A DNA stretch of 64,000 nt from positions 18,534 to 82,533 of the forward strand of contig CAYQTU010000002.1 in the NCBI GenBank assembly GCA_964420575.1, read 5' to 3'. The translations under genes and the position numbers were made by a program. Shown here in pieces: positions 1,405-28,389 of this stretch (its first letter is position 1; every line of letters starts with the position of its first letter). The notes below the pieces were generated by a model that was not told the DNA's origin, ran no database searches, and saw nothing but the letters and a program-made list of their open reading frames with translations. This DNA comes from an uncultured bacterium (GTDB lineage: Bacteria; Omnitrophota; Omnitrophia; Omnitrophales; Aquincolibacteriaceae).

Positions 1405-1418
1405 AGGAAATCCGACCG

Positions 1419-1835: not shown

Positions 1836-1857
1836 TTATAAAATTTTTAGATATGAA

Positions 1858-3455: not shown

Positions 3456-3457
3456 AT

Positions 3458-6294: not shown

Positions 6295-6295
6295 A

Positions 6296-10988: not shown

Positions 10989-13900
10989 GTGAAGACTATT
11001 GGCTGGCTGAGATTCCGATTTGCGTTCAGGCTTATTTCTCTCGTTTTAATCCTAAGCCTCATTTCTTCGGATATTCTCTGGGCAAATCCCGTCTCCATGG
11101 TTCCATCTGCGGGGCAATCCGTCTATTCGCCGGGAACGGGTCTTGAGGGTTTTGCCCGTTTAAACGAATCCACTCGCTCCGATCAAAAAGATAAATCCCC
11201 GATTATCTACCACATTCAAGACGCGCATGCGGTCTTTGAAGCTCAACAAAACCTGGCGAAGATTGTTGAGGCGCTTATTCAGAAGGAAGGCATTGATCTT
11301 GTTTTGGTGGAAGGCGGTGCCGGGAATGTCAGCCTGACTTCTTTAAGGAGTCTAGCTTGGAAAAAAGTCCGTAAGCGCGTTGGCGAATCTTTTCTAAGGC
11401 AAGGAAAGATTACTGGCGAAGAATTCCTCGAACTTTCAAGCGATTATCCTTTTGAGCTTTATGGGATCGAAGACCCCGCGCTTTACCGCCAGAACCTGGA
11501 TGTTTTCTTAAGCGGCATCAGCAAAAAAGAGAAACTCTCAAAAGAGCTTGGGCGTCTTGATAGCGCTTTTTCGTCCCTGGAGTCATCCATTTATCCTTCC
11601 CGGTTTCGGGATCTCGAGGAACTGCGTTTGGCATGGCGGTTCGGGAAAGGAGATTTTCAGGTTTATCTCAATACCCTTCGCAAACTCATCAATGAATCTA
11701 AAGTCCCCGCGCATGATCTCCTGGAATGGCGTAAGCTCGGCAACTCCGAAACTGTGCGCTCCATTGACGCAGAGAAATTCCTGAAAGAGATAAACGTCCT
11801 TGAATCCAGACTCAGGGAGTCATTGCTTAATACTCAAGCGAAAAGGTTGTGGCGAGCACAGGAACACTTGAGGCTTCTCGGCCGTCTTTTTTCTTTCGAA
11901 CTCACTTCGGATGAGTACGCGCTTCTTAACGGTCAGCAGCATTTTGATTTAAAAAAGACTGGAGCCGATATCGAGCGTTTAATCCAGGATTCAGTGCATC
12001 TCCGAAAATCCTTCGCGTTTCTTCGCTCCGAATTCCCGGAATTTCTCAAGTTCTACGATCTTGCCCGGAAACGCGATAAAGCATTTATCAAAAATATTAA
12101 CTCTATCCTTCGGGAAAAACGGGAACGAAAAGTCATTCTTATCACCGGCGGTTTCCATTCGAAACATCTAGGAGCTTTGCTTAAAGAAGAGGGCATCTCC
12201 CGTATTTTAATCTCTCCCGAAATCACGGGAGCCAGTAAAAACATTGATTCTGATTACGCAAAGATTTTACGGGCGAAATCGAAATCCACGCTTCGCGCGC
12301 CGGCAACTTTGGGAAGCCCCTTCTATCCTGAACTCAAAATAACATTGGGGCGTGAGCAGGCAAAGGAACTCGGGGGGCATATCAAGCAGCTCATCAGTTT
12401 ACTGAATGTCGATCATCTGATGGCACCGGCTGCCTCGAAATCCGTTCTCCTTCGTTCCGAGCTTCGCATGGAATTATTCAATCATCTTGGTACATTTTTC
12501 GCTTTATCCAATAATGGGACGGCAGTCCATTGGATAGTCATAGGGAGCGCGGGTATCCTGGGTATCGGGATACTCGCGTTTCTCCTATCCAAGTGGAAGA
12601 AAAAACATAAAGCTACCCATCAAAATCCAGTTTTATTAGCTGATTCCGAGTATTCAAGCGACACGGAGCTTTCTTCTGATGAAAACAACGCCGATGAAGC
12701 CTTTGCAAACTTCGAAGCGACACTTGGTCACGCGGCTACTCCCGCGCAGGCATTTGCTTTTGAAAGCGGCCGGTTCTTCGGTTCAAGTTTTCCCGTCGCT
12801 TCTCAGGACCAGCATCTTCCGCCTCCGCCTCAGGAACTTCCTCTGCCGGTTCCGTTAAACGCGATCCCGGCGGATCTTGATCAAAAGGGAAAAACCGTGT
12901 TTGTGCTTCGTGAAGTTTTGCAGGCGATGGAAACGATGGATTCGACCATGCGCGGCCACCAGAAAGAATCCGCGGAACGCGCGATTCGCCGTGTCGTTTC
13001 GGAGGGGGACGGCACCCTCGATCACAGACGGTTCAGACAGTATCTCGAGGAAGACATTCATCAGTTTTTCGGGACTATCTTTCGGGAGATGCAGAAGCTT
13101 TCAACTACGCACAGAGAAACCGGAAATTATCAAGTCTCGGAGGAGATTGAAAAAGCGTTTCCCCGGTTCCCGCGCTATGTGAAATCCATTCTTAGCGAAA
13201 ACCCTGGTCTTAGCGAGGATGTTGAAGTCAGAGGGCTCATGAACCGGATCTCCGCGAAGCTTGGCGCAAGACCGCCCGTCGCAGAAGACCTCGGCGATTA
13301 CGTGGAACGTTCCTTTTCTCGGATCATGGAAGAGCGCGCTCAAACTCGGATGCCGGTTCTTCCCGTAGTCGAAACTCCCAAGCCCGCTCCTAAGAAGACC
13401 GTGGACCTTGGAAGAATTCAAGGACAGTTGCGGGATGTTCAAAGAATGCGGGAACGTTTTGAGGCGGATCAAATCAGTCTTCATGTGGAACTTACGCAAC
13501 TCGAGACGGAGTACCGGGAGCTTCAGGAAAGCATGGAGGATGCGAGACAAAAGAATGACACCGTGATACAGGAGGCGTTAGGCCCCTCCATTGACGCTTA
13601 TGAGAGCCGCATTCAACTTCTCCGGCATAACGATGGGGAGATAAAGGACCGTCTTCGCCAGATCAAAGGCGAGGAAGCGAAATTATCCGAGGAGCTGGAT
13701 GAGGCGACCGGGAGATCGGAACTGCGTGAGTTTCTTTCTTTCCCGATTGTATTTTCCTCGCTCGGGACCGGACTTCTCATGCTAACGGCTCTTTATCTGA
13801 CTAAGATCAATAGAGCCATACACCGGATCAGGGAGCTTACGGTAAAGAGCGGCAGGAGCTGGCCCTTTACATGGAAACAAGTCTTTGATGAAACCGTTCA

Positions 13901-16900
13901 TCTCAAAAAGGAGGAGAAACTCAGCATTTTTGACGGAACCTCGGAGCCTCCCGCTCAAGGGTTTGCCGGGTTTGGGGTATTTCTCGGCTGGGTCATTGGC
14001 GGTTGGGCTCTTTATCAGGCATATCACGGATGGGGTTGGAACACGGCTAAGATTCTACGCGGCGAGGGCGATAGCGCGTTTACTTTCGGGGGCTTGCTCT
14101 GGTGCCTTGAAATCTTTGCCGCGCCTATCGTTGGCGCGATCGTAGCTCCATTTTTAGCGTTCTTGGGAACTATCGCGATCAATCGCGGGAGAATGATTGC
14201 CCGCATTCTCAAATTCCCATTCGACTACGAAAAAGTTTTAGAACTTCATCTATCTGACTTTCATGCATATCACCAGCCTTTCTTGAAAAAAGCAGCCCGG
14301 TTTCTTTCCCACATGAAAAGCTCTACTCTTGAAACGATCCTTCGTGGCTGGTTCGATCGCGGGGAGGATGAAAAACTCAAAGCCGTTTTGGAGAAAAACG
14401 TTTGGTCCGGCGAAAATTACGCGCTCATTGCCCGGTTCCGGGACGAATTCGGTCTTAAGGAAGCGAAGAAAGCGCTTTTTACTGCCGCTGGCGAGGAGTT
14501 TGGGGGAAGACTTCTCCAAATCATTGATACGTTTAAAGCGGGGCTTATCGCGAAGAAGGTGAGCGGTGCTGGAATATTAAAGGACGTGATCCTCGAGGTC
14601 TTGAAGACCGAGAAAGAAAAACACATGGCGACGTACTGGATGACGCAGCTTATGTCCGATCCCGCGACTCCGTGGAACGCGGGTTTCGATAAAGTAAAAG
14701 CTTATTACGCGGTCCGGAAACGCGTGGATGTCTTGAAAACCGACGCCGCAAAAAAGTTCGGGCTCGATAAGGAGGATCTGGCTCAGGTTGATGCTCACAT
14801 CGGGAAATGGCGGGAGCGAATTCTCGCTCCGGAAAATAAGGTAACGGAACCTTCATGGGTGTGGTCGCTTATCTCGGAACTTCTCGGGAAAATCATCGCC
14901 CGTTCATCTACAAAAGTTTGGTTCATGCACATCCTCGAAAAATCCCATAGCTTGAACGCACCGTTTTTTGCACCGGCCAGGCAGCGGGAGCTGCTTTCGA
15001 GGCTTGACTGGCTCATTAATTACGAGATCGCGAAAAGCGATGTTTGGGCATCTGCGAGCGAATCTGAAAAGTCCGTTCTTTTAAGCGAGATGACGAGTCT
15101 TGAAGCTTTCCTTAAAGAAAACGGGGTGGATTACTCAATAGCTCTTCCGGATACTTTCACGAAAATCAAGGCTCTGAGTGCGCCAGAGCGGATCATGGTT
15201 CTTCGTGCCTTTAGAGGCCTGAATCCATCGGTCTACAAAAAAGATCCTCAGGCGGCGGGCCGTGCTTTTCAGCTTTTAGCGGACAAAGAAATACTGCGGG
15301 GGAGACTTGCCGCGAATAACGGATCGGCGGGGAGCATTCGCGAGCTTGAAGCGAGACTTGCCGTGCAAACTCCTGAGGACATTCAAACCCTTAAGAGTTG
15401 TTACGGCGTTCTCGCTGAAAAAGCGGACGCGAAAGCGCAGGGTGTTTTACTCGCGCTTGCCGCTCGCGCTCCTCCCGCGGTACTTCCTGTTTTTCTTAAG
15501 TCCTCGGATCATCTTGTGAGTTATTACGCGGCCCATCCCAAGGGCCGGGATTACGACAACCTTCCACTGTTGGCCGATGAATACCGGAAACGTTACGGCA
15601 GTCTTTTTTCCCTGAACGGGATTCTTCTTAATATCCTTACCGATCCCTCAAAACCTCAAGCTGTAAGAATTGAGGAAGCCGGGAAAACCATCGCGGGACA
15701 AGTCTTGGTCCGGATGGGATTTCCCGAAAACACGATCGGGGTCTGGGACAGCGTGAGCCCCGAGGAAATCATCCATGCGGTCGGGTACGAGGTCTTAAGG
15801 TATTCGGAAGAAAAGAAATCCGACGACGAGGAGAAACGAAGTTATTTCAGTCCCGAAGAAATCCGAGGCGAGGGCGAGAGATTCCTTCCGGCGCGGACCC
15901 GAAACCCGGTCGTGCGGAAAGCTCTCGAGAAAATGGGCCGGTTCGGTCTTTACAGCCACTGGGAAAGCGCAAGGCCCGCCTATTACCTTCAGTTTCTTGA
16001 AGACACGAAGGGTCTTGATCCCGAGTTCTTTAAACCCGGTGAAAAGGTTCGGGCCTCTTACGACGGCGAGTTCGTTTCTCCGAGGCGCGCAGGTTCTCTT
16101 GCTCCCATCAAAGATCCCATTCAGACCATGAAAGGCCTGATTCGAAATCTCCGGGACCGTTATCCGAATATTTACGACAATTTCATTGGTCCGAAGCGCG
16201 AGATCCTTGCCGGGAAACCTCTCGAGGATTTCATCACCGACGAGAAGAGTTTAATGTCCGTTGCCGGTCAGTTCCGCAAGAAAGTCGCGGATTGGCCTCT
16301 CTCCGAGGATGAACGCGTTGAAATGATGATACTTATTTATCAGGTGGCCTTTTCAAGCTCTCTTCAGCCTGTGCTAGGGAAATCCTCCGAGACGGAAGAA
16401 ACGAGGTACTGGCAGGACACTTTAAAAGCGTTTCAATCGGCAAGCGGTCTTAAGAAACAATCGGAGCTTTACCGAAACGTCACGGCCCGGATCAAGAAAC
16501 GAATCGATGAACTCATTGAGGAGGCCGGAGCGGGCCGCGAGGGAGTCGTTCAGTTTGTTTTGACGCGTGGTAGCGTCTCCGATTTCTTCAGGGGCGAGAT
16601 ATCGGAAGACTGCACTTCAGAGTTATGGAACATGCATTTTACGGACACGGTCGGTCTTCCGACCGATCCCGCGTTTTTATCGTTCCGTCTTGTCGAGAAC
16701 GGACGATGGATCGGAAACGCATACGCAATCGTGTTAAAAGACTCTTCCGGGAAATTCATTTTTTATCTGGATAACATTCCGGTCATGCTCAGGCACCCCG
16801 CGACAACCGTTCAGGTTAAATCCGATAAACTGATCCAGAATTTCTTCAAACAGTTGAAACCCGTTCTCGAGAACGCGGGCTTCGATTATTTCGTGATCGC

Positions 16901-19900
16901 GAACGATCCGTCCTCCCGCGCCAATCTCAGGACGTCCATAAAAGCGCTCGGCGGATCGGCAGAAACGAAGACCGTAACAAAACCCGGTGGATTCGGCGGG
17001 CAAAGCGAGTTCGGCGTATCAAGCGAATACATTCAAGGTCTCGGGACGTTATCTTCCTCGATTTCCGCGGCCGGCACCTGGATCACTCTCGATAACCGCT
17101 CGGCGCAGGCGCAGAAAAGCAAAGCGGAGCTTACCGCCCTTGAAAAACAGATTCAGGCGATGGAAGAAGACCGGAAACGCCTCGCGGCGCTCAAGGCCGA
17201 AAAAACGGGTCGCGCGAATCATCTTAAGACCGTTCTTCAAACGATCTCGCAGGGCTCGAAACGCGCGACAGCGCAGGCGCTTAATGAAGCGGCGCAAAAA
17301 GAAGAACTCGAAGCCGAGAGACTTTCCATCGAAACAAGAACGCTTGAAGAACAGGTGAAAGCGGTCCGGGGCCGTCTTACCGGGCTAAGGAATGAAGTAG
17401 CGCAAAGAAGCGAATTGAGAATGCCGGCTCTTTTAGCGCAATCGTTATTTCCTGATCTGTCTCCTGGGTTATTGCTCTTCGGACTCTGCGCCCTTCTTTT
17501 CGGCGGTCTCATAGTGATCCTCATCATTGACTGGTATAGCGAGCAAGTGAAGCGGGATGAGGAATATACCCGCTCCCTTGAAAGACATTCCGATGATTTT
17601 AGATACACTCTAAGACCGATTAATGAAACTCCCGGATGGATGAAGCATCCTCTCGTCGTCGAAGTTGGTGAGCTTTTCAAAACGGTTCTCGCGAATGTCT
17701 CTGCCGAGATCCGGGAACTCGTTCCACACCGCATTTTTTTACCGATCATGGGTTGGAGTATGGACCTTTCAAAAGAGGTCGTTAATGTCCTTTCCACGGC
17801 CCGGATCGTGCTTCTTGCCCTTAAGGAAAAAGGCTCGCTTATCCCGTTTCTAAAAGAGCAGCCTTACTATCAGAAATTCAAGGAGGAGGCCTCCGCGTTA
17901 GGTCTTGATCCCGAGTTTGATAAGCCGGGTCTTGTCTCGGAATTCGAGCTTTCCCGGCATAACGGCACAAAGATTTCTTTTGCGCTCGAAGTATCGGAAC
18001 GCACAGCGGACGATTTATTGCGCGGCGATATCAGCCGCGATTGCACCGGGCTTGGCGCGCACGCCGCGTTTTACGAAACAATCCCGCAATTTTTGCTCGA
18101 TCCCGGGTTCATTGATCTGAAACTCAGGATGCATGGAAGATGGGTGGGAAACGTTTACGTGATCGCGATGAAACGGGAAGGGAAACCCGTTCTTGTCATT
18201 GACGCCGTACAGCTGCATCCCAGTTTTGTGCTGTGGCCGATTCGTCCGGCGACGATTGCCGATGAAGCGGTGAAGCAGGTGACGGAATGGGCGAAAACGA
18301 AGAACTTCCAAGCTGTGTATATGAGCCGATTCATTTCAAACTTCTTTTATCTATACGACCATTTCGATCCGAAATACCCGCCCCAAAAAACCGAGATCGA
18401 GAAACTCGGAGGATTCAAGCACCTGAAAGCGCTCGGGCTTTGGGACGCGGACACTCGCCGCAATCAATACATCGAAACGTTTTCTCCGCACTGGAACGAA
18501 CCGCTAAGAGTGGACGCAAATAGCGCTCACCAGACACTTCTCCTTCGTCCTATTTGGAGCGCCGAAGCTCCAGCCCGTTCCGAAATGCGGACGGATAAGG
18601 TGTGGGATCTTGACGGATTCCATTTCGAAGTTCCGGAAAGCGATTTGAAGGGACTCCGCGGTGTGGAGGCGGAAAAGGAATCCAAGAATCAGAACCTGCT
18701 TTTGCGCGCTCTTGCGAGCAAGGAACTCGGTCTTTCGGCGGCGCTCAAGGAAGCGGTTCTTGATCCCGCCACGAAAATCCGGGTAAGAATCCATGACGAG
18801 ACAAAAACGGAACGCATTTATAAATTCATCATCGTTCGTCCCGACGGCCGCCGGAATTTCATTCTGGAAATCAATCCAAGAGGCGGGAAGTTCCATCCCT
18901 ATACCGAAGAGCTGAATCTTGTGGATACTGCGCTTATGACGGCCACGGATTCAACTGGGGAGGTGGATCTTCGGGATATTTTCACCAAGTTCGGGGAGCC
19001 GCCCGATCCTAAACTTCACGTGATCCCGTCCTTCGGAACCCTTTATGCACAGGAAATCCACAAGCACGGGTATGTGGACCAGGGCATGAAGATATTCGAT
19101 CTTACGATTAAGGACCATCCCACTCCGTCTATCCGGATCGCGACGAAAGCAAAGAACGCTTCCGAATTCTCGGGCGCAAAAGTGATTTATGATTTTAATT
19201 GGCAGAAGACGCCGTATGTTTTGGCTGTTTATTCTCCGGGAGCGGAGGTTTCGTTATCCGAACCTAGTACACCAATTCCTTCTGAAACCGTTGTTGTAGA
19301 AGCGCCGGTGAAAGCGGAAGCTCCAGAAGATTTAAGTCCGGTGAGCGTGCCGGAGCCTCCAGAGCCCGAAACTCCGGAGCCTGCGGCCGCAGTTGCTCAA
19401 AGCGCGGGAACAGCGGGAGTGTTGGGAGCGGGTGCCGCTTTCATCAAAGCGATCCTTGCCAAGAAACGGGAATCGTTATTTAAGGCCTCCATCCAGAAGA
19501 TTGAAAGAATCGGAAGCGATATTCTCGGGATTGCCCGGAAAGCCAAGGAAGCGGTAGAAACTGCTGTGGAACCCTCAGACCTTGACCGGCTGGAAGCCGA
19601 GCTTGCGTCTTCAGCAAGCGCGATTGACGAAGGCCTCGCCAAGCTCGAAGCGGAAGTCGCCAAATACAAAGACGGTTCGAAGGAAAGAACGGAACTTGAC
19701 GCTCTGAAACAAAAAATCAGCGGAGAAATCGAAGCGCTTAAGGAAGCGGATATTGCTCGCGAGGCTGCGGTTCAAGCGACAGATGATCACGCTAAAGCGG
19801 AGGAAATCTCCCAGGCCTTGGCCGAGGAATCCAGGAAATTAACCGCTCTGAAATCTCAGACTGATAAGGCCCGTGAAGAACTCGAGCGTTTAGAGCAAAA

Positions 19901-22900
19901 GACGCGGGATTTCACTACCCAGGAAAAGAAACGCAATGACCTGCTTAAAACCGTGGAGGAATTAAGCGCGCGGATCCGGGGAGAGGAAGAAACCCTTGCC
20001 GCTCTTAGCGAAAAAACCACGCAGGCCGAACGTGATCTGGAAGTCAAGAGATCCCAAGGGGAGACTCTCGCCCGGGAACTCGCCAGCCAGGAGTCCCGGC
20101 TTAAAGCGCTCCAAGCGGACCAGGAACAAGCGAGAACCGAGCTGACTGAAATCCTTTCGAAACTCAAATCCGCGAAACGCAGAGCTTCGGATTTAGCGAG
20201 AAAAACGAAGCAACTCGAAGAAATTTCGCGAAAGACCGAAGAAAAAGACCGGAAACTTTCCGCGAAAAACGATGAGCTTTCAAAAGCCGATCAAGCTCTG
20301 ACCGAAAAACAAAGATCTCTTCAGGCCCTCGATGAGACGTTAGCGGCTCGTGGCAGGGAAATCGCGGCCTTGGAAGAAAAAGCGGCAGGTCTTCGAACCG
20401 AAACCGAGGCGCTCGAACGGAGAAAAGAAACGCTTTCGAAATCGACTGAGGAGCTTGGCACGATGCAGTCCGAGGTATCCGCTGCCGAAGCCGAGCTTTC
20501 AGGGATCCGAAAACAGTACGAGGACGCAAAAGCCGAGTATGAGCGTGTTCTCGCGCTTAGCCGGGAGGAGCGCGGTAACCTAGCAACCATTCAGGCCGAA
20601 CTTTCAAAAGCACAGGAAGCGGCGCAGGCGATGGAAACGAAATTATCCGATCTGAAGGAGCAGGAGCGGAAAAGAGAAGCGCTACTTCGTCAAATCGCCG
20701 AGGCTGAAAGAGAGCTTGAAGTAAAGGCCGCTTCCTTAAAAGAGATAAACGCGGAACTTTTAAAACTCGATTCGAAGAAAACGGAGCAAATTCAAGACTC
20801 GGAAAAAACGGACTCTGAAATCGCGGCAAAAGCCGCGGAGCTTACCCAAGTCAAGGCGGAGACGGCAAAGCTTCAGAGCGACCTCGAAACTTTAAGAGGA
20901 AACATCGCATCGCTTCTGGGTGACATCGAAGCTAAAAAGCGGGAGGCCGCCGCTTTAGAAGAGGAAAAAGTCCGGCTGCTTGGGGAAGCGAAATCCATTG
21001 AAGAGAAAAACCGGGAGATTGAGGAAGCCCGGAGAAAATTAGAGGCCGAGCAAGCCGAAAGAACCAAGGCCGAGCAGGCGCTTGCTGAGGAACAAAGAAA
21101 AGCAAGTGATACGGCTCAGGGTCTTAAGACAGTCGGGGAACGTTTGAAACAGACTGTTCGTGATATCGCGGACCGCGAGACAAAAATCGCGGGTCTTACG
21201 TCTGAGGTTGAGACTGAGAAAGCGAAGACAAGACAGGCCGAGGCCGGGAAATCCCAAGCCGAGGCCGAGCGCGAGCAGCTTGAAGCGGATCTCACGCATG
21301 CACAGCAGGAGAAAAATGTTTTAGAGGAAGCTTTACGACAGGCCCAGAAAACTTCAAAAGCGACCGGAACTACCGATTCCGTGCTGGAAGGGCGGGAGAG
21401 CCTCGAAGCCCTTCTTTCGGAACTTCCCGAAAGTTTATGGCAGCTTCTCGGGCGTCATTTTCCGGGGCAGCATCAAACTTCCTTTCAACTCACGGTAAGT
21501 TCTGTCGCGAATGAACTCGCTAACGCGTGGAGCCGGAGCCCATTTTTCAGACGCATCATAAAAAATCTCGTGCTTTACCGTTCTCTTTATGTCTGGCTTC
21601 AAAAACAACCGTTCTATCGAGAGTTTAAGAAGGAAGCGGAAAAACTCGGGGTAAAATCCGATTTCGATAAACCGGGGGAATGGATCCGTTTTAATATTCC
21701 GGGCGATTCCGAAGGCTATTCTCTCGAACTTTCCAAAAGGGACGCGGAATATCTTCTTCGCGGATTCATGTCCGGGGACTGCACGAACTGCGGTCCCGGT
21801 TATGTGACAGGCTCATTCCTGACCGCTACCGCAAGCCACATCGTCGATCCCGGTTTCTTTAACTTCAAGATCTTGAGGAACGGCGAGTGGGTCGGGAATG
21901 TCTACGTGATGGCGATCCGCGAGAAAAATAAACCAGTGCTCGTAATCGATGCGATGCAGATTCCGTGGCAGAGCGCTTCTCCTCTTTTCATTCCTTTTGA
22001 TTTATCGCAGAGCAAGTTCCCGATCGTAAGTGAGAAGGACGCGATCACGTTGGCGGACGCGGTGATTCGTGCGCTGTCCGAATACTCCTCAAAAGCCGGG
22101 TTCCAGGAGCTTTGGCTCTCGAGCTTCGTTTCCAATTTCAGCGCGCTCAAACATCATTTCTATGGCGCTAACCAAGATGAATTTGATAAGCGCGTAACCG
22201 GGGAAGCGAAGATCGGCGGCTGGAGTGCGTTAAAAGCGCTCGGGTACGAAGGTCATCCTTATGTGGAATCTATTGGGAACCCCGAAGCGAAGAAAGTCTG
22301 GGAAGCGGAGGAAGTGCCGCCTCCAACTCAAGTTGAACCGCCAAAAGTCACTCCATCCACTCCAGAACAGCCCGTTAAAGGAACCCAGAATATTAAAGGT
22401 CTTGTTCAGCAGATAAGAGAAAGCGTCATGTTCTCGTACGGGAACATTGTCCCTCGCGGCATGGAATTCGTCGTGAAAGCACCGGGAGCCGGAGTACGGT
22501 GGATCGCTTTTGATGAAACGGCCAATGAATGGAGACTTTACGAGAAAGCGAATGGCAGAACCGAGAGTTATCCCTTATTTGAGATAGGAAGCGGTGTTCG
22601 CCAGCAATCCGGAACTCTCAATCTTTCAGTCATTGCTGTGGAACGCGGCGGAAAGAGGATTCCTGTCATCAGATTCTTGATGCTTCCGCCCATTAAACCC
22701 GGAATTCTTGAAACGCACGTTGAAGAAGGCGGAGCTATTTTCGAGGAATCGGGTGAGATGAAAGTAATGCCTTTTACGAAGAAAGGCTTCATCGTGGACG
22801 ATTCCCGTGGCGCGTTCTTTGTCCATCCGGGCGGAGACCAAGGTCTTGATTCGAAGGAAAATATCTCATTGCCACTTTCGAATCATTATGACGTGAGCCG

Positions 22901-25900
22901 TTCAAGGTTCCCGACCGCGAAATTCATTCTTGGGTGGCACACGAACCCCGGAGGAGAGCCCGCGCTTCACTCCGAAGAAGAAAACGAGATAATCCGTTCC
23001 AATGTCGAAGGCTTCCAGCTTGTCGCGAGCCCAAAGGGTATTTCTCTTGTCAGGTATTACAAAGAGGGAGAAGCATGGAAGAAAAGAACCCTTTTCACGA
23101 AAACACTGAATGAGGATTGGGCGAGCGATCTTGAAGCGGCGTTACAGGCGGAACTGGACGACAACGTTAATTTCTCGGCATCCGGGTTCCAGTTAAAGCT
23201 GGAGGACCGGAAGCTTCTTGACGTGGCTCTTGAGGAAGGCTCCAAATCCGCGTCACGGAACATCAAACCCGAGATCGAAAGACTACGATTTGACCTGACC
23301 ACTTATTACGAACTTGTGCCGGAGTCGCTACTCTCGTTTATTCAAGATTCGGATTTTAAGCTTGTCGTGGTTCGTCCCAAAACCCCAAGGGGAGAAAGAG
23401 CGCCTCCCATGGGTCTTGGCGTGTATCTCGGAAAACCGGGGCGTGATGTGTTCGCATCATTCAACGTCGCTCCGAAGGAAGACGCGGATGGTTTCGATGT
23501 CACAATTTATGTTGGAAATGGTATTTACGAACTTGCCGGTGAAAAAGAACGCCTTGAAATCATCGCGCACGAGCTTTATCAAGCTTTTAAGGTTGTCAGC
23601 GCCCAAAATCCAAGGAAATATCAGGCTGACATCGATCTTGAGATCAAGATCGATCAGGAAATCCGAAACGCCGAAGCGTGGGAGGCCCGGATTCCGAATG
23701 AGGAACGAGCGGACCTCGGTTTGATCGGCGGCGTGGCGAATAGAACGAACGCGCATGTCCGGGCCCGCGCATTTGCCCGGTTGCTTGGTTCAAAAAGCTC
23801 GGACGGTGTCGGGACGACTTATACCGCGCTTCTCAGGAACGCATGGGCGCTTGCCCGTAGGTTCTCAGGGAACGTTTCTCAAGAGGATACTCTAAATCCC
23901 GTTCCGCCCGTTTCTCACGATGCGTTTCGTTATACCCAGGACAGTTATCAGAATGTGGTGAGCCCGGAAAGTCTCAAGACTCTTTTTGAGATGAGCGCCT
24001 ACGTTCATGAGAACAAAGAAGAAGACCTCCTTCAATTTTTAGATCGAAAGATCGAGGATGGGAAACGCGTTCTTCTTTTCAACACGAACGCTCCGACCCC
24101 TTGGATTTTGAAGGACCTCAGGAAGATCGTCGAAGGTCTTTCCGCGGAAGGGAAACTCGGGACGCTTTATATCGATTTGCCGCCCGAAAGCCAGCGCTTA
24201 ATCGATGAATTTTTGCGGACCGGGCAAAGCTCCGAGAAACTTTCGAAAATTCTCGCGACCCGTTTCCCGGTCTTTCTCCCGCGCGAGTTTCAAAGACCCG
24301 ATTTGTACGAAAATCTTCTGCGCGCGGTTTACGAATTCAATCTTGAGGCGCGTGATTCGCAGAAAATAAAGGTGGTTGCTTATTACCGGGGCCGGATGCT
24401 TCCGTCCATGCCGGGACCGGGACAGGTTCCAGGCCGGCCGGGCAATGTTCCGCAGCCACCCGCTGGGTTCCCATTTGGGAACGCCGGTGAAAACGAGTTT
24501 CCCGCCGTGATGCCGCGGATGAACGAGCTGCCGTTCGCTCAAGGGATGTCTCTTCCTCCGCTTCCGCTTACGCCGGGGGTGAGAGAAGCGTTTAGCAGCG
24601 CTCTCTCTGAAGCCGGGAGGAATCAAGGGATTGCAATATTCATAAAACCTTTGGATGAGTTTCTGCCGGAGGATCTTGTCAGGAATCCGGAAGTCGCTTC
24701 CATTCTTCAGATCGATAAATACACAGGATTCGGTCCTGAGAAACCCGAGAATAAACTCGCGCTTTATATGTCGGAGCAAGCCTCTCCGAACCAGAAATCC
24801 TTCGCACTTCCCATTGGTTCGGAAGCGCCGTTCTATGAGGAATCCATTAATCCCGGCCTTCCTGGAGGAATGCGTTTTAATGAGTTTAACGCGTACCCGG
24901 ACCTGATCCTGAGCACGGCGGGAGACGGAGAAGATACGTTTGAACCCACTCCCGACGAGCTTGTTCCCGACGAAATCGCGCCGCTTGTTCCGGTAGGGAG
25001 CCGTTCCGAACTCAGGTTGCAAACGACACCGGCCGCTATAAAAGCTCTTCATGAAAGAAAAGCGGCCATTCGTGAGCTTTCGCGGATCGGGGAGCCTGCT
25101 GTGGGTCCTTTGATCGAGGCTCTCAATTTCCCGAGCGTATCTGTGCAACTGGGCGCAATCCAAGCGCTTGGCGCGATTGGAAGCGCGCGGGCCGTGAACC
25201 CCATAAACCATGTTGCCCAGGCCGCCGCATTAAAAGACGCGGCTCGGCTCGCGGTCGAGGAGATAAAAAGCAAGACGCCCGTGCCATCGAAGCGGGAACC
25301 GAACCATCATCAGCCGGTTCCTCAAATCCCGTCCGGGCGTTCCATTTATTCTTCCTTTAACAGTACTCGTTCCGACGAATTTATCCGTGTTCTTTTGAAA
25401 GCCGCTCCGATTGCCCTTGATATCGATGCCGAGACATTGATCCGGAAAGAACACGGGCGACTTTCTCTTTCCGGCTGGGGATTCGTGGAAGCCATTAAGT
25501 CTCTTGAGCGGAAACTTCCGGACGAGCTTTTGGGGCGGATACAGATCCGTGTGATCAATCTGAATCCCGAACTTCGCGAGGAAGAGATTCGGCGCGCGTT
25601 TGGAATCACGCCGGAACTTCAGAGCCTGATCCGGATCGAGAATGTGCCCGTCCGCCACCGCGCGTTTAAAGGTCTTGGAAATTTCCTCGAGAAAACAGCG
25701 CTTAAGATCGGTTCTGAGAAAAACCAGGCGCTTTGGAAAGACAGTCTCGACATTCTGGTGGAGAACCCGCGGCCAAGCGAAGTAATCGACGGCAGAAAGC
25801 TGTTCCTTACGGCGCTGCTTCATAAAACGCTTCGTTCCAGGATTTCGGAGGCTCTGAAAGCCGTCGTCGTCCGGTTGCTTCACGAACTCGGGGAAAGCTC

Positions 25901-26006
25901 GTTCATGGCCCCGGTTCATTTCAGTTCCGAGAACCGGAGCGCGCTTGGCCTTGAGTTTGTCGCGGAGCTGGACCGGGTCAATAAGCTTCTGGCGACAATG
26001 GCATAG
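10989..26006 (+). CDS. giant 5005-aa secreted/membrane-anchored multidomain protein
   Basis: Single uninterrupted frame of 15,018 nt; GTG start. N-terminal signal-peptide-like MKTIGWLRFRFAFRLISLVLILSLISSDILWANP. Several internal TM helices; Pro-rich linkers; a triplicated ~170-aa module with G-x-S-x-DCT / DPxF / NGxWVGNxYV motifs; coiled-coil of ~680 aa; C-terminal HEAT/PBS-lyase-like repeats (PAVGPLIEALN...VQLGAIQALGAIGSARAV). Minus-strand ORFs inside are short. Confidence 0.8.
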   Translation: MKTIGWLRFRFAFRLISLVLILSLISSDILWANPVSMVPSAGQSVYSPGTGLEGFARLNESTRSDQKDKSPIIYHIQDAHAVFEAQQNLAKIVEALIQKEGIDLVLVEGGAGNVSLTSLRSLAWKKVRKRVGESFLRQGKITGEEFLELSSDYPFELYGIEDPALYRQNLDVFLSGISKKEKLSKELGRLDSAFSSLESSIYPSRFRDLEELRLAWRFGKGDFQVYLNTLRKLINESKVPAHDLLEWRKLGNSETVRSIDAEKFLKEINVLESRLRESLLNTQAKRLWRAQEHLRLLGRLFSFELTSDEYALLNGQQHFDLKKTGADIERLIQDSVHLRKSFAFLRSEFPEFLKFYDLARKRDKAFIKNINSILREKRERKVILITGGFHSKHLGALLKEEGISRILISPEITGASKNIDSDYAKILRAKSKSTLRAPATLGSPFYPELKITLGREQAKELGGHIKQLISLLNVDHLMAPAASKSVLLRSELRMELFNHLGTFFALSNNGTAVHWIVIGSAGILGIGILAFLLSKWKKKHKATHQNPVLLADSEYSSDTELSSDENNADEAFANFEATLGHAATPAQAFAFESGRFFGSSFPVASQDQHLPPPPQELPLPVPLNAIPADLDQKGKTVFVLREVLQAMETMDSTMRGHQKESAERAIRRVVSEGDGTLDHRRFRQYLEEDIHQFFGTIFREMQKLSTTHRETGNYQVSEEIEKAFPRFPRYVKSILSENPGLSEDVEVRGLMNRISAKLGARPPVAEDLGDYVERSFSRIMEERAQTRMPVLPVVETPKPAPKKTVDLGRIQGQLRDVQRMRERFEADQISLHVELTQLETEYRELQESMEDARQKNDTVIQEALGPSIDAYESRIQLLRHNDGEIKDRLRQIKGEEAKLSEELDEATGRSELREFLSFPIVFSSLGTGLLMLTALYLTKINRAIHRIRELTVKSGRSWPFTWKQVFDETVHLKKEEKLSIFDGTSEPPAQGFAGFGVFLGWVIGGWALYQAYHGWGWNTAKILRGEGDSAFTFGGLLWCLEIFAAPIVGAIVAPFLAFLGTIAINRGRMIARILKFPFDYEKVLELHLSDFHAYHQPFLKKAARFLSHMKSSTLETILRGWFDRGEDEKLKAVLEKNVWSGENYALIARFRDEFGLKEAKKALFTAAGEEFGGRLLQIIDTFKAGLIAKKVSGAGILKDVILEVLKTEKEKHMATYWMTQLMSDPATPWNAGFDKVKAYYAVRKRVDVLKTDAAKKFGLDKEDLAQVDAHIGKWRERILAPENKVTEPSWVWSLISELLGKIIARSSTKVWFMHILEKSHSLNAPFFAPARQRELLSRLDWLINYEIAKSDVWASASESEKSVLLSEMTSLEAFLKENGVDYSIALPDTFTKIKALSAPERIMVLRAFRGLNPSVYKKDPQAAGRAFQLLADKEILRGRLAANNGSAGSIRELEARLAVQTPEDIQTLKSCYGVLAEKADAKAQGVLLALAARAPPAVLPVFLKSSDHLVSYYAAHPKGRDYDNLPLLADEYRKRYGSLFSLNGILLNILTDPSKPQAVRIEEAGKTIAGQVLVRMGFPENTIGVWDSVSPEEIIHAVGYEVLRYSEEKKSDDEEKRSYFSPEEIRGEGERFLPARTRNPVVRKALEKMGRFGLYSHWESARPAYYLQFLEDTKGLDPEFFKPGEKVRASYDGEFVSPRRAGSLAPIKDPIQTMKGLIRNLRDRYPNIYDNFIGPKREILAGKPLEDFITDEKSLMSVAGQFRKKVADWPLSEDERVEMMILIYQVAFSSSLQPVLGKSSETEETRYWQDTLKAFQSASGLKKQSELYRNVTARIKKRIDELIEEAGAGREGVVQFVLTRGSVSDFFRGEISEDCTSELWNMHFTDTVGLPTDPAFLSFRLVENGRWIGNAYAIVLKDSSGKFIFYLDNIPVMLRHPATTVQVKSDKLIQNFFKQLKPVLENAGFDYFVIANDPSSRANLRTSIKALGGSAETKTVTKPGGFGGQSEFGVSSEYIQGLGTLSSSISAAGTWITLDNRSAQAQKSKAELTALEKQIQAMEEDRKRLAALKAEKTGRANHLKTVLQTISQGSKRATAQALNEAAQKEELEAERLSIETRTLEEQVKAVRGRLTGLRNEVAQRSELRMPALLAQSLFPDLSPGLLLFGLCALLFGGLIVILIIDWYSEQVKRDEEYTRSLERHSDDFRYTLRPINETPGWMKHPLVVEVGELFKTVLANVSAEIRELVPHRIFLPIMGWSMDLSKEVVNVLSTARIVLLALKEKGSLIPFLKEQPYYQKFKEEASALGLDPEFDKPGLVSEFELSRHNGTKISFALEVSERTADDLLRGDISRDCTGLGAHAAFYETIPQFLLDPGFIDLKLRMHGRWVGNVYVIAMKREGKPVLVIDAVQLHPSFVLWPIRPATIADEAVKQVTEWAKTKNFQAVYMSRFISNFFYLYDHFDPKYPPQKTEIEKLGGFKHLKALGLWDADTRRNQYIETFSPHWNEPLRVDANSAHQTLLLRPIWSAEAPARSEMRTDKVWDLDGFHFEVPESDLKGLRGVEAEKESKNQNLLLRALASKELGLSAALKEAVLDPATKIRVRIHDETKTERIYKFIIVRPDGRRNFILEINPRGGKFHPYTEELNLVDTALMTATDSTGEVDLRDIFTKFGEPPDPKLHVIPSFGTLYAQEIHKHGYVDQGMKIFDLTIKDHPTPSIRIATKAKNASEFSGAKVIYDFNWQKTPYVLAVYSPGAEVSLSEPSTPIPSETVVVEAPVKAEAPEDLSPVSVPEPPEPETPEPAAAVAQSAGTAGVLGAGAAFIKAILAKKRESLFKASIQKIERIGSDILGIARKAKEAVETAVEPSDLDRLEAELASSASAIDEGLAKLEAEVAKYKDGSKERTELDALKQKISGEIEALKEADIAREAAVQATDDHAKAEEISQALAEESRKLTALKSQTDKAREELERLEQKTRDFTTQEKKRNDLLKTVEELSARIRGEEETLAALSEKTTQAERDLEVKRSQGETLARELASQESRLKALQADQEQARTELTEILSKLKSAKRRASDLARKTKQLEEISRKTEEKDRKLSAKNDELSKADQALTEKQRSLQALDETLAARGREIAALEEKAAGLRTETEALERRKETLSKSTEELGTMQSEVSAAEAELSGIRKQYEDAKAEYERVLALSREERGNLATIQAELSKAQEAAQAMETKLSDLKEQERKREALLRQIAEAERELEVKAASLKEINAELLKLDSKKTEQIQDSEKTDSEIAAKAAELTQVKAETAKLQSDLETLRGNIASLLGDIEAKKREAAALEEEKVRLLGEAKSIEEKNREIEEARRKLEAEQAERTKAEQALAEEQRKASDTAQGLKTVGERLKQTVRDIADRETKIAGLTSEVETEKAKTRQAEAGKSQAEAEREQLEADLTHAQQEKNVLEEALRQAQKTSKATGTTDSVLEGRESLEALLSELPESLWQLLGRHFPGQHQTSFQLTVSSVANELANAWSRSPFFRRIIKNLVLYRSLYVWLQKQPFYREFKKEAEKLGVKSDFDKPGEWIRFNIPGDSEGYSLELSKRDAEYLLRGFMSGDCTNCGPGYVTGSFLTATASHIVDPGFFNFKILRNGEWVGNVYVMAIREKNKPVLVIDAMQIPWQSASPLFIPFDLSQSKFPIVSEKDAITLADAVIRALSEYSSKAGFQELWLSSFVSNFSALKHHFYGANQDEFDKRVTGEAKIGGWSALKALGYEGHPYVESIGNPEAKKVWEAEEVPPPTQVEPPKVTPSTPEQPVKGTQNIKGLVQQIRESVMFSYGNIVPRGMEFVVKAPGAGVRWIAFDETANEWRLYEKANGRTESYPLFEIGSGVRQQSGTLNLSVIAVERGGKRIPVIRFLMLPPIKPGILETHVEEGGAIFEESGEMKVMPFTKKGFIVDDSRGAFFVHPGGDQGLDSKENISLPLSNHYDVSRSRFPTAKFILGWHTNPGGEPALHSEEENEIIRSNVEGFQLVASPKGISLVRYYKEGEAWKKRTLFTKTLNEDWASDLEAALQAELDDNVNFSASGFQLKLEDRKLLDVALEEGSKSASRNIKPEIERLRFDLTTYYELVPESLLSFIQDSDFKLVVVRPKTPRGERAPPMGLGVYLGKPGRDVFASFNVAPKEDADGFDVTIYVGNGIYELAGEKERLEIIAHELYQAFKVVSAQNPRKYQADIDLEIKIDQEIRNAEAWEARIPNEERADLGLIGGVANRTNAHVRARAFARLLGSKSSDGVGTTYTALLRNAWALARRFSGNVSQEDTLNPVPPVSHDAFRYTQDSYQNVVSPESLKTLFEMSAYVHENKEEDLLQFLDRKIEDGKRVLLFNTNAPTPWILKDLRKIVEGLSAEGKLGTLYIDLPPESQRLIDEFLRTGQSSEKLSKILATRFPVFLPREFQRPDLYENLLRAVYEFNLEARDSQKIKVVAYYRGRMLPSMPGPGQVPGRPGNVPQPPAGFPFGNAGENEFPAVMPRMNELPFAQGMSLPPLPLTPGVREAFSSALSEAGRNQGIAIFIKPLDEFLPEDLVRNPEVASILQIDKYTGFGPEKPENKLALYMSEQASPNQKSFALPIGSEAPFYEESINPGLPGGMRFNEFNAYPDLILSTAGDGEDTFEPTPDELVPDEIAPLVPVGSRSELRLQTTPAAIKALHERKAAIRELSRIGEPAVGPLIEALNFPSVSVQLGAIQALGAIGSARAVNPINHVAQAAALKDAARLAVEEIKSKTPVPSKREPNHHQPVPQIPSGRSIYSSFNSTRSDEFIRVLLKAAPIALDIDAETLIRKEHGRLSLSGWGFVEAIKSLERKLPDELLGRIQIRVINLNPELREEEIRRAFGITPELQSLIRIENVPVRHRAFKGLGNFLEKTALKIGSEKNQALWKDSLDILVENPRPSEVIDGRKLFLTALLHKTLRSRISEALKAVVVRLLHELGESSFMAPVHFSSENRSALGLEFVAELDRVNKLLATMA

Positions 26007-26018
26007 GAAAGGGATGAC

Positions 26019-27824
26019 ATGATTACCATGGAGAAGAAGAAACCGGAGAATGGTATTTCTGAGGAAGATAAGATCTATTTAAACGTTATCGAGAAAGCGG
26101 CTTTTGAAGGGTTTGCGAAACTCATCGATCCGGTCACGGAATTCCCGGTGGATATTGCGTCCGTTACGGGCGGGAATCTCGAATGGGATTATAAAAATCC
26201 GTATCGCAGCAAAACCTCTCCCACCAATATCGCGCTTGGATTCTTGTATGTATTGCTCGCTTGCGAAAGAGGCTTTATCAGTTGGGTAAAGACATACGAA
26301 CACGCGCTTCGGATGTTTGGGATGCTCAGGCTTTTGGAAACGTTCGAAGGATTTCATTACAACTGGTATTACCTAAACGGGAAAAGCGAGACGGTGCCTG
26401 TCGTGACGTATAACCGTTTTATCTCGTCGGTAGATAACGGCAACCTCGATATTGCGCTTATGATCGTCGCGGAATATTTCAAGAACTCGACTCTCGCGAA
26501 AAAAATACATAAACTGCTTGTAAACAGGGACTACCGTTTCTTTTTTGATAAGAACCCGAGCCGGCCGGGAAATCAAATGATAAGCGTGGGGTTTGACGCA
26601 CGGAAGGAGCAGTTCACTCCCTCCGATTACTCGGTTTTTAATACAGAAGCGCGAATGATGGTTCTGCTTTCGGTTTTGAAGGACCATGTTCCGGAATCCG
26701 CGTGGAAAAAACAATCTAGGCTTGTACGTACTTACAAAACCACGGAAGGAGAAATTATTCCAGTCGTGGCTCCTTGGGGCGGCAATCTCTTTGAAGGACT
26801 CTTTGCGGATGAACTGATTGGGGGAGATAGAATTGCGCCGAAAGCGTTTCTTTCGAATGCGCTTAATTTAATCAAAATCCATCAGGATTACGGGAAACGA
26901 ATCTCGGAATCCGGGATTTGGGGGATCTCAAATGGGGAAGTGCCGGGAGAGGATCGTTACGAGATGGCGGGAGTAAGAGACATTGCTTACAGCCAGTTCC
27001 CCGGCGAGTTCGTTACACCGTACTCGACTTTTCTTGCGCTTAAATACGATACCGCTGCTGCCATAGAAAATTTGAGGAAGATGGAAGAGCTGAATCCCGA
27101 TAGCTTTAACCGGAATTTCGGGTTTGTCGATTCCCTCGATCCCAAGACCGGCGTAATTAACCGAAACATTCTGAGCCTTGATAAAGGAATGGAATGTTTG
27201 GCGCTTGGGAATTTCCTGAACGCTATGGATGGAAAGAAAAGGACTTCCGATTATTTCCAGGATTATTTGAAAAACTGTCTTTGGCGCGAGAAAGCGGAAA
27301 AACTTTTGAAGGATGAAGAACGCCATCCTTCGTTTCAGGCGCTATCGGTTACGGGAAAACGCACGAAAAGAATCCAAGCGTCCTTTGTGATCTATATCCT
27401 TGGCCTTGAACGGGAGATCGTATCTTTTAAGGGCGAGGGAAAAGCGAAGGCCGAGTTTGAAATCGTTGGAAATCAAAGCAATAAAACACTGTGTGTGCTC
27501 TATGACGTCAGTGAGCGGTATTCTTTCTCGGGGATCTCACTTCGGATGACGGAAATTGGCATCGAACCTTTTGAGAATCTTCTTTTTACAATAAAAGGCA
27601 ATGAAAGACTCGGGATTCCAAAAACCATAAAAGTGGATCTCAAATGGAAAGGCGAGCTGATTCAATTCGGACATTTTCCAATAACGAAAGACTGGACCAC
27701 TGCGAGCCTTTCTTGTCCCTCGTATCCGAAGAGGCTGGATGAAATCTCCTTTGTCTTTGAGAATTCGGCAGTGGGAGACGATTTAAGTGGGGAGATTTAT
27801 ATACAAGCGCTGGCTTTGAAATGA
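26019..27824 (+). CDS. putative glycoside-hydrolase-like protein (six-hairpin / glucoamylase- or DUF3131-like)
   Basis: 601 aa; motifs SPTNIALGFLYVLLACERGFISW, GFHYNWYYLNG, GFVDSLDPKTG...LSLDKGMECLALGNFLNAM reminiscent of (alpha/alpha)6-barrel glycosidases; family assignment untested. Confidence 0.4.
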   Translation: MITMEKKKPENGISEEDKIYLNVIEKAAFEGFAKLIDPVTEFPVDIASVTGGNLEWDYKNPYRSKTSPTNIALGFLYVLLACERGFISWVKTYEHALRMFGMLRLLETFEGFHYNWYYLNGKSETVPVVTYNRFISSVDNGNLDIALMIVAEYFKNSTLAKKIHKLLVNRDYRFFFDKNPSRPGNQMISVGFDARKEQFTPSDYSVFNTEARMMVLLSVLKDHVPESAWKKQSRLVRTYKTTEGEIIPVVAPWGGNLFEGLFADELIGGDRIAPKAFLSNALNLIKIHQDYGKRISESGIWGISNGEVPGEDRYEMAGVRDIAYSQFPGEFVTPYSTFLALKYDTAAAIENLRKMEELNPDSFNRNFGFVDSLDPKTGVINRNILSLDKGMECLALGNFLNAMDGKKRTSDYFQDYLKNCLWREKAEKLLKDEERHPSFQALSVTGKRTKRIQASFVIYILGLEREIVSFKGEGKAKAEFEIVGNQSNKTLCVLYDVSERYSFSGISLRMTEIGIEPFENLLFTIKGNERLGIPKTIKVDLKWKGELIQFGHFPITKDWTTASLSCPSYPKRLDEISFVFENSAVGDDLSGEIYIQALALK

Positions 27825-27990
27825 GCGCGCGGAACTTGTAAACACGGCAAGATAGTTCAAAAGATCGTCCTCAATGCAGAACGCTAAAAATTACAAGAGC
27901 CGGGAGGGGAAAGGCGGATGCTTATTTCGATGAATAAGTTCATTTTTCGGGTTCGAAAATTGATGAATTCATCACTGATCTCGACGGGGT

Positions 27991-28230
27991 TTAACCTTCT
28001 TCTTCCATCTTTTTTAGTAATTCCCATTTCAAAAGGCCAAGGCTTTTCGCGATCAGTCCGATTTTATGCAAGGTGACCGACGCCTCGCCTCGTTCTATTC
28101 TCCCTTGATAACTGCGGTCCACACCTACATGATCGGCGAACGCCTCCTGGCTGAATCGTTTCTCGATTCGTAGCTTCCGGACGGTGCTTCCAAACTTTCT
28201 TTCTTCTTCACCCACGTTCCTTCTTTTCAT
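27991..28230 (-). CDS. XRE-family HTH transcriptional regulator
   Basis: VRKLRIEKRFSQEAFADHVGVDRSYQGRIERGEASVTLHKIGLIAKSLG is a canonical Cro/C1-type HTH. Confidence 0.8.
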   Translation of the reverse strand: MKRRNVGEEERKFGSTVRKLRIEKRFSQEAFADHVGVDRSYQGRIERGEASVTLHKIGLIAKSLGLLKWELLKKMEEEG

Positions 28231-28267
28231 AGCGTGTATGGTGAGCGAATGTTTTATTTATGTCCAC

Positions 28268-28325
28268 GGACTATAATCCTTCATGTTGCAGGAAGGTTTG
28301 CGGGATCACATCAAGGACTATAATC
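28268..28325. promoter_or_regulatory. two direct copies of GGACTATAATCC in divergent XRE/LacI intergenic region
   Basis: GGACTATAATCC at 28268-28279 and 28314-28325; each contains a TATAAT -10 hexamer; located between minus-strand XRE gene and plus-strand LacI gene. Confidence 0.5.
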
Positions 28326-28389
28326 CGTTGAAAATACGTAATAAACACGTTACTTTTTATTTATCGTTACTAAGTCAGCGAGGATTGAT

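Follow-up and report, generated by a model that had tools for sequence, protein, structure and literature searches.

A predicted, highly divergent GNAT-fold module present in three copies in a giant Omnitrophota protein

GNAT domains are known from very large proteins. In the polyvalent proteins encoded by T4SS conjugative elements and by phages, Iyer et al. 2017 described RimI-like GNAT domains, which are predicted protein modifiers; the polyvalent proteins themselves are presented as soluble cargo that often carries zincin peptidases, and the word 'transmembrane' does not occur in that paper (PMC5512222). For the Omnitrophota, giant proteins rich in transmembrane segments and GNAT-class domains have been reported as common, with GNAT domains found on the giant proteins (West-Roberts et al. 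2023 preprint; 2026 Omnitrophota complete-genome preprint). Large parts of the giant proteins from uncultured Omnitrophota still lack annotation.

Here, we analysed a 64,000-nucleotide stretch of DNA (the window) from an uncultured member of this phylum, which encodes a megaprotein with three related modules. No other segments of the megaprotein are as well conserved as these modules, to which a predicted fold and a testable enzyme class can now be assigned, and the assignment reaches about 116 protein clusters missed by current Pfam and NCBIfam models. The GNATs of the Omnitrophota preprints, although from the same phylum, are PF00583 matches or results of fold searches on other proteins, whereas the present module escapes Pfam, forms its own family, carries a near-invariant Cys and occurs as fixed A-B-C subtypes.

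A triplicated module in one open reading frame

All three modules lie in a single open reading frame with a GTG start (Table 1). The N-terminus of the encoded megaprotein was judged by eye to be a signal or anchor, and the chain contains several hydrophobic helices, coiled coils and, at the C-terminal end, HEAT repeats. The N-terminal domain (aa 35-490) has no match in the PDB, and Pfam and NCBIfam searches of the megaprotein gave no known conflict or peptidase domain.

Table 1 Features of the megaprotein gene, in window coordinates
Feature	Position (nt)	Strand	Remarks
Megaprotein open reading frame	10989..26006	+	5005 aa
Module A leader	15960..16070	+	aa 1658-1694; two short helices and first beta strand; ends ...GLDPEFFKPG
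Module A insert	16071..16520	+	aa ~1695-1844; all-helical, between leader strand and GNAT core
Module A GNAT-like core	16521..16988	+	aa 1845-2000; Cys1875 at nt 16611-16613
Coiled coil, A to B	17034..17408	+	aa ~2016-2140; weak SMC-type model matches
Strongest predicted transmembrane helix	17445..17528	+	aa ~2153-2180; Kyte-Doolittle 3.03; between A and B
Module B, leader helices and complete GNAT-like domain	17835..18518	+	aa 2283-2510; Cys2352 at nt 18042-18044
RSEMR motif	18576..18590	+	directly 3' of module B
Coiled coil (long), B to C	19536..21458	+	aa ~2850-3490
Module C, leader and GNAT-like domain	21582..22313	+	aa 3532-3775; Cys3598 at nt 21780-21782

An earlier note on this DNA had described a triplicated module of about 170 aa, and the triplication is real. 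Modules B and C share 37% identity over 224 aa (E 3e-41), the core of A and module B 35% over 78 aa (E 3e-11), A and C match with E 3e-8, and the leaders of A and B with E 0.008; these values, together with conservation in orthologues, which keep all three copies in unchanged order, rule out a chance repeat and identify the copies as true paralogues. The proposed length was too short, given that B and C measure about 220-245 aa, and the proposed spans stopped short at their 3' ends, which extend in B and C to the limits given in Table 1. The alpha3-beta5-alpha4 part, with a conserved S-N motif, lies 3' of 'VLVID'. The leader said to precede each module is present in all three and ends in KPG (aa 1682, 2312 and 3561), except that in module A it does not adjoin the core; the two are split by the helical insert of about 150 aa, which is also kept in the A-type copies of orthologues. 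The motifs quoted at the time could be located as follows. The D-C-T motif (RGEISEDCT in A, RGDISRDCT in B, RGFMSGDCT in C) and DPxF (DPAF, DPGF and DPGF) occur in all three modules. NG(R/E)W(I/V)GN(A/V)YV holds for A (NGRWIGNAY) and C (NGEWVGNVY), while B has HG for NG (HGRWVGNVY), and KPVLVID..Q is found only in B and C, with GKFIFYLDNIPV at this place in A.

The suggestion that the copies are displayed on alternating sides of a membrane is not supported, because only one strong hydrophobic helix (aa 2162-2180) separates A from B and none separates B from C at the hydropathy cut-off. Judged from predicted helices, at most module A would be on a different side from B and C, and B and C may be outside the cytoplasm should the chain stay uncleaved. 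Five RSE[LM]R sites (nt 12453, 13713, 17406, 18576 and 25002) recur along the megaprotein at positions conserved in orthologues. Their codons vary among sites, which rules out a DNA-level repeat and points to selection on the peptide. A literature search on 'RSELR' gave irrelevant matches only.

Relatives, predicted fold and conserved residues

Given that a word-indexed search with module B alone returned no match, itself included, we used a profile search of all representatives over 1.84 billion proteins, which yielded 116 relatives. They comprise giant proteins of Candidatus Omnitrophota, in which 2-3 copies follow a fixed A-B(-C) order, and stand-alone proteins of 300-800 aa, such as the earlier note had proposed to look for, with archaeal proteins among the very distant ones. 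A tandem-GNAT architecture of the stand-alone proteins is not supported, given that hhalign found no relation between their N-terminal half and the module. By tblastn, module B has no match in plasmids or phages, and a pattern scan of IMG/VR was also without a match. Against orthologue P0001 the modules are 72-86% identical, compared with 57% for the megaprotein overall.

As the earlier reader had found by eye, the window copies carry no family signature at the sequence level: PDB sequence searches with a single module or a 59-sequence profile returned noise only, and no Pfam or NCBIfam family, GNAT models included, was reached by the megaprotein modules or by 10 stand-alone homologues. The module family thus has no Pfam or NCBIfam model. 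Within the family, 3/59 members match PF00583, among them P0057 (21.9 bits, the cut-off being 20.7, with the match inside its module), which NCBI names 'GNAT family N-acetyltransferase'; the window copies would be linked to PF00583 only by transitivity through such members. The AF2 model of module B (pLDDT 95.4, pTM 0.92) has the topology beta-beta-alpha-alpha-beta-beta-beta-alpha-beta-alpha, and all 22 Foldseek matches at E<=1e-3 are GNATs, with RimI and NatD the best. The predicted elements follow the GNAT order beta1-alpha1-alpha2-beta2-beta3-beta4-alpha3-beta5-alpha4-beta6, with two leader helices at the N-terminal side and an extra beta hairpin packed onto the core; in module C the beta4-alpha3 loop is longer. 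On this model, the modules are an unclassified and very divergent form of the GNAT fold; they add a new branch to a known enzyme superfamily and are not a new kind of protein.

The Q/RxxGxG/A pyrophosphate loop (motif A, between beta4 and alpha3) is absent in 59/59 aligned members, with a loop of variable length in its place, although the hydrophobic-x-Pro that precedes the lost glycine motif is often kept. An S-N pair after beta5, with Ser kept in 85% and Asn in 79% of the 116 copies and with S-S-R instead in module A, corresponds to motif B, whose Asn contacts pantetheine where beta5 meets alpha4; the pair aligns with the motif B 'SN' of Coxiella RimI (9mto) at an E-value of 1.3, which is not significant alone. 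The Tyr that usually acts as general acid is not conserved. The Cys, on whose conservation in orthologues the earlier note had staked its reading, is kept in them and also in distant relatives (115/116 copies). It sits in the alpha1-alpha2 loop, and once relatives are added the residues near-invariant beside it are G(-6), D(-1), the beta4 Asp (96%) and the Ser of the S-N motif. In no column does His reach 60% over the 116 copies, so there is no family-wide conserved His; in the loop between beta4 and alpha3 the A-type copies have an extra, invariant His (25/25), which is present in 13/58 B-like and 3/33 C-like copies.

Compared with the N-terminal acetyltransferases RimI, NatD/Naa40 and RimL/RimJ, to which the modules are about 10-15% identical, the S-N position is shared, and the leader helices can be likened to the N-terminal helical extension that reportedly wraps the NatD core. 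Unlike these enzymes, the modules lack the Q/RxxGxG/A loop, have a near-invariant D-C(T/S) in the alpha1-alpha2 loop, add leader helices, a beta hairpin and, in A-type copies, the helical insert, and are repeated 2-3 times in proteins several thousand residues long.

Candidate activity and alternatives

With moderate confidence, we regard the modules as highly divergent GNAT-type acyl- or aminoacyl-transferase domains, with protein or peptide amines as the probable acceptors; of the folds listed in the earlier note, acyltransferase is supported, and peptidase, transglutaminase and toxin-like fold are not, given that neither a papain-like fold nor a family-wide His is present. Each module would be an active transferase, with the donor thioester or ester placed in the beta4/beta5 splay by the Asp, a Gln/Glu and the Ser-Asn pair, and the Cys-bearing loop would form the acceptor-site wall, as in N-terminal acetyltransferases. 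The acceptor would most likely be a protein or peptide amine, as suggested by the RimI and NatD matches and by recurrent fusion or adjacency to M28/M20 and M14 peptidases, to ClpS-ClpA-Aat and to HEAT and ankyrin repeats. From general GNAT geometry we infer that the Cys lies near the beta4/beta5 site, where it may position or deprotonate the acceptor; that it carries the acyl group is less likely. A, B and C may be old, functionally distinct subtypes on one membrane-anchored coiled-coil scaffold. Acyl-CoA use is putative, since the CoA-binding loop is absent in all aligned members. CoA thioesters and aminoacyl-tRNA are absent outside the cytoplasm, so a possible extracytoplasmic position of B and C counts against a transferase using either.

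L/F-transferase (Aat), Bpt/ATE1, FemX and MprF have a GNAT-type fold without a CoA loop. The modules, which share this lack, could likewise be CoA-independent: the donor would be aminoacyl-tRNA or some other non-CoA compound, and a residue would be added to protein N-termini or to a different amine. The family is a test case for the use of non-CoA donors by this fold. In three Smithellaceae loci a stand-alone homologue adjoins the N-degron genes clpS-clpA-aat, an adjacency that survives a change of gene order, and aminopeptidase and carboxypeptidase families recur, with M28/M20 fused to family members and M14 and M20 genes also among the neighbours. However, the clpS/clpA linkage is confined to one family and missing in six other loci (Gemmatimonadota, Syntrophorhabdales and one unclassified bacterium); contexts beyond Smithellaceae are heterogeneous, and those of the stand-alone homologues P0016, P0067 and P0057 are uninformative. 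Furthermore, hhalign of A2 against Smithellaceae Aat (Leu_Phe_trans) gave a probability of 0.2%, Pfam gave no Leu_Phe_trans or ATE match (PF03588, PF04376, PF04377) and no Fem match, Aat and Bpt/ATE1 show no sequence or profile similarity to the module and are not among the top structural matches, which are all CoA-dependent GNATs, and the S-N pair resembles a motif that contacts pantetheine. We consider this reading unlikely.

The lost CoA loop and the unconserved Tyr could also indicate a catalytically dead GNAT-like module, a pseudoenzyme for binding or assembly on a membrane and coiled-coil scaffold, in which the Cys is structural or modified. The setting among coiled coils, HEAT repeats and transmembrane helices is consistent with this, as would be an extracytoplasmic location of B and C in an uncleaved chain. 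Against it, the cleft-type polar set (D-C, beta4 Asp, Gln/Glu, Ser-Asn) is kept in very distant relatives, archaeal and stand-alone ones included, which is typical of active sites, and constraint on the megaprotein is strongest in the modules. Inactivity is improbable.

Active-site cysteines of the GNATs characterised so far are not catalytic (PMC8072286). It is also improbable that the Cys serves as a genuine nucleophile, forming an acyl- or aminoacyl-enzyme, in a lineage without CoA loop that acts on protein termini, with the domain built three times into a membrane-anchored polyprotein of an Omnitrophota conjugative element and this polyprotein cut at RSE[LMVI]R into separately anchored enzymes; if true, no earlier GNAT in the literature consulted would have had a catalytic Cys. 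The near-invariant Cys and the lost CoA loop together make the family a test case for a covalent Cys mechanism on this fold.

A Cys-nucleophile hydrolase (peptidase, transglutaminase or toxin), for example one that cleaves its own chain at RSE[LMVI]R, would account for the near-invariant Cys with Asp before it, the His of A-type copies and the conserved sites, one of which is directly 3' of module B in all orthologues, but is very improbable, because the predicted fold is that of a GNAT and not papain-, NlpC/P60-, caspase- or transglutaminase-like, with no papain-like alpha+beta arrangement placing the Cys at a helix N-terminus, because the His is conserved neither in B- and C-type copies nor family-wide, and because no peptidase with a GNAT fold is known to us. 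The likeness of 'DCT/DCS-G' to NlpC/P60 is coincidental, with another fold and no His.

Conjugative-element neighbourhood

The megaprotein gene belongs to a conjugative-element neighbourhood, with Replic_Relax, T4CP, VirB4, TrbL and CagX genes at 30.9-54.2 kb of the window. In architecture and context the megaprotein resembles the polyvalent proteins, being a very large multidomain protein with GNAT-like domains beside T4SS conjugation genes. In contrast to these soluble cargo proteins, it has several hydrophobic helices and long coiled coils, and no conflict domain or processing peptidase is recognised in it. Through this context, a putatively membrane-anchored megaprotein is linked to a conjugative element in the Omnitrophota, for which mobile elements have hardly been described. 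Both in the window and on the contig of P0129, a close relative from the 90%-identity cluster of P0001, the megaprotein gene lies upstream of a relaxase-like gene and the T4SS coupling protein gene, and the order on the P0129 contig (megaprotein, 129 aa, 251 aa, T4CP) is the same as in the window.

Three copies of a divergent GNAT-fold module

The megaprotein carries three paralogous modules, here called A, B and C, each with a leader, a short N-terminal segment ending in KPG (n = 3). When each segment is compared by BLASTP with the full megaprotein, the proposed triplication is borne out: B and C share 37% identity over 224 aa (E 3e-41), the A core and B share 35% over 78 aa (E 3e-11), and A and C match at E 3e-8, as do the leaders of A and B at E 0.008. 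All of the motifs quoted in the earlier note are present, with the conserved Cys at aa 1875 in A (RGEISEDCT), aa 2352 in B (RGDISRDCT) and aa 3598 in C (RGFMSGDCT), a second motif reading DPAF in A and DPGF in B and C, and a third reading NGRWIGNAY, HGRWVGNVY and NGEWVGNVY, respectively; however, NG is replaced by HG in B, and KPVLVID..Q is limited to B and C. The module boundaries need correction, given that B and C are both longer than the ~170 aa first assigned and that the leader of A is split from its core by ~150 aa. Display of the copies on alternating sides of a membrane is not supported by the helices, because A and B are separated by one strong helix (aa 2162-2180) and the B-C stretch has no comparable one.

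Coordinates of the megaprotein, its modules and the downstream conjugation genes
Feature	Window (nt)	Strand	Megaprotein (aa)	Remarks
Megaprotein ORF	10989..26006	+		single ORF, 5005 aa, GTG start
Module A leader			1658-1694	
Module A core	16521-16988		1845-2000	
Module B			2283-2510	
Module C			3532-3775	
RSE[LM]R sites (n = 5)	12453-12467, 13713-13727, 17406-17420, 18576-18590, 25002-25016			in megaprotein
Conjugation module	30947-54170			Replic_Relax, T4SS coupling protein, VirB4/TraC-like ATPase, TrbL/VirB6, CagX/VirB9

Pfam and NCBIfam gave no match on the modules, and elsewhere in the megaprotein only matches of the coiled-coil type plus a HEAT repeat at the C-terminus; PDB sequence searches with the module returned noise only. 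An AlphaFold2 model based on a 59-sequence family alignment headed by module B (mean pLDDT 95.4, pTM 0.92) opens with two leader helices and a beta hairpin; alpha1 and alpha2 come next, then three strands, and a long alpha3 leads into beta5, alpha4 and a short final beta6. This predicted structure is a GNAT topology with an N-terminal extension, and all 22 Foldseek matches to it at E<=1e-3 are GNATs. PF00583 is matched by 3 of the 59 alignment members; in P0057, a relative named GNAT family N-acetyltransferase by NCBI, the match lies inside the module and, at 21.9 bits, exceeds the cut-off of 20.7. At the sequence level, these matches appear to bridge the family to GNAT. The C-terminal domain of the stand-alone subfamily shares homology with the module (hhalign probability 99.9%, E 4e-33). 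We are confident that the module has a divergent GNAT fold. The structure prediction proposed in the earlier note has yielded this fold, and it, together with the absence of a family-wide His (every His column is below 60% across 116 domain copies), rules out the peptidase, transglutaminase or toxin-like folds considered there.

Conservation and likely activity

Searched against 1.84 billion representatives, a HMMER profile of the three copies recovered 116 proteins at E<=1e-3, of which 47 reach E<=1e-10. With module B as the sole query, a word-indexed search gave no match. The relatives comprise giants of 1.4-7.5 kaa, each with 2-3 copies, and stand-alone homologues of 300-800 aa. Named members of the relatives' clusters are Candidatus Omnitrophota MAGs, and the stand-alone forms come from Smithella and Smithellaceae, Syntrophorhabdales, Gemmatimonadota and one Undinarchaeales archaeon. 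The megaprotein orthologue P0001 (5012 aa) is 57% identical overall, whereas its modules are 72-86% identical to their counterparts. In the other giants, each of the three window copies is matched by a separate orthologue and the order A, B(, C) is invariable, so, judged from sequence, the triplication appears to be old and A, B and C to be distinct subtypes.

The Cys, whose conservation the earlier note had put forward as a check, is retained in 115 of 116 domain copies, alongside the Gly at -6 (96%), the Asp at -1 (94%), the Asp of LVID (96%) and the Ser (85%) and Asn (79%) of an S-N pair. In the model of B, the Cys lies in the loop joining alpha1 (model residues 58-67) and alpha2 (77-87); in published GNAT structures this loop lines the acceptor-binding site on one side. 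Strand beta4 bears a conserved Asp and Gln/Glu, and beta5 is followed by the S-N pair, which aligns with the motif B SN of Coxiella RimI, a match that is not significant alone. These conserved polar residues at GNAT-cleft positions, and the stronger constraint on the modules than on the remaining protein, favour an enzymatic role over that of a scaffold.

The acceptor is most likely a protein or peptide amine, on soft evidence: N-terminal acetyltransferases are the closest structural matches, and recurrent fused or neighbouring partners act on protein termini. The Q/RxxGxG/A pyrophosphate loop (CoA loop), between beta4 and alpha3, is absent from every aligned member, and its loss admits a non-CoA donor such as aminoacyl-tRNA; no sequence link of the module to L/F-transferase was found. 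The beta4-alpha3 loop varies among members and is much longer in C. In A-type copies it contains a His in 25 of 25 cases, 5-11 residues past the beta4 Asp at the CoA-loop position; among B-like copies the count is 13 of 58, and among C-like copies 3 of 33. The A subtype may therefore have a different chemistry from the other subtypes.

GNAT domains on Omnitrophota giants have previously been reported, and polyvalent proteins of T4SS elements are known to carry RimI-like GNATs (PMC5512222). New here is a GNAT branch without an existing family model that combines an invariant Cys, a lost CoA loop and leader helices with three fixed subtypes, all within one membrane-anchored coiled-coil protein. 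Active-site cysteines were not catalytic in the GNATs studied so far (PMC8072286), which would make a catalytic Cys in this module a first for GNATs.

Genomic neighbourhoods

In three Smithellaceae loci (L002/L005, L006 and L007, from Smithella and Smithellaceae MAGs) a ~500-aa stand-alone homologue directly adjoins clpS-clpA-aat, genes of the N-degron pathway, and L007 keeps this adjacency despite an altered gene order. Six other loci (Gemmatimonadota, Syntrophorhabdales and one unclassified bacterium) have varied neighbours, including an M14 carboxypeptidase and an M20/M28 peptidase; fusion partners in other family members are M28/M20 peptidase, HEAT, ankyrin and beta-propeller domains. Upstream of the stand-alone P0016 (locus L014, 1-5013), genes with no Pfam match correspond to internal parts of the module-bearing giants P0071, P0108 and P0013, which suggests that the giants arose from operon neighbours that fused, or that the process ran the other way.

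Downstream of the megaprotein lies the conjugation module, which also contains DUF932, MoxR AAA and DUF2201 genes. Given this module and a GC content of ~0.50 over 11-60 kb versus ~0.40 at the window ends, the megaprotein gene is probably carried on an integrative conjugative element. The contig of P0129 (5092 aa, in the 90%-identity cluster of P0001) preserves the connection between megaprotein, relaxase-like gene and coupling protein seen in the window, with the order megaprotein, 129 aa, 251 aa and coupling protein, then RadC, amidoligase, GATase and an IS1595 transposase. At the locus of P0130, another protein of the P0001 cluster, the upstream region holds Mu-like, IS21 and mutator transposases, and the P0002 locus matches the window in the order histidine kinase, response regulator, 464-aa gene, megaprotein, glucoamylase and LacI.

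The glucoamylase-like gene and LacI-family regulator (window 26019-29475), between the megaprotein and conserved backbone genes, are missing at the same spot in the P0130 locus and present downstream of P0002, and look like variable cargo. The lower-GC left end (window 252-7093) holds a 775-aa gene and a run of receiver-domain genes, the latter recognized by eye from translations. At the P0002 locus, the genes in synteny carry recorded Pfam matches, one to a response regulator and one to a 7TM histidine kinase.

A recurrent pentapeptide and the N-terminal domain

RSE[LM]R is absent elsewhere in the six-frame translation of the window, and RSE[LMVI]R recurs at equivalent positions in the orthologues P0001 (5 times), P0002 (6) and P0012 (6), with diverged flanks. 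Its codons vary from site to site, showing that selection operates on the peptide. At three sites a hydrophobic helix comes next and then a basic or mixed-charge stretch, and one site lies immediately after module B; the pentapeptide may mark polyprotein cleavage or a fusion junction.

Pfam and PDB sequence searches with the N-terminal domain (aa ~70-440; window 11190-12300) gave no match. After a signal-like helix, this domain reads 'YHIQDAH ... LVLVEGG ... ITGGFHSKH', which by eye resembles the paired GxxH motifs of TraB/PrgY/Tiki-type proteins.
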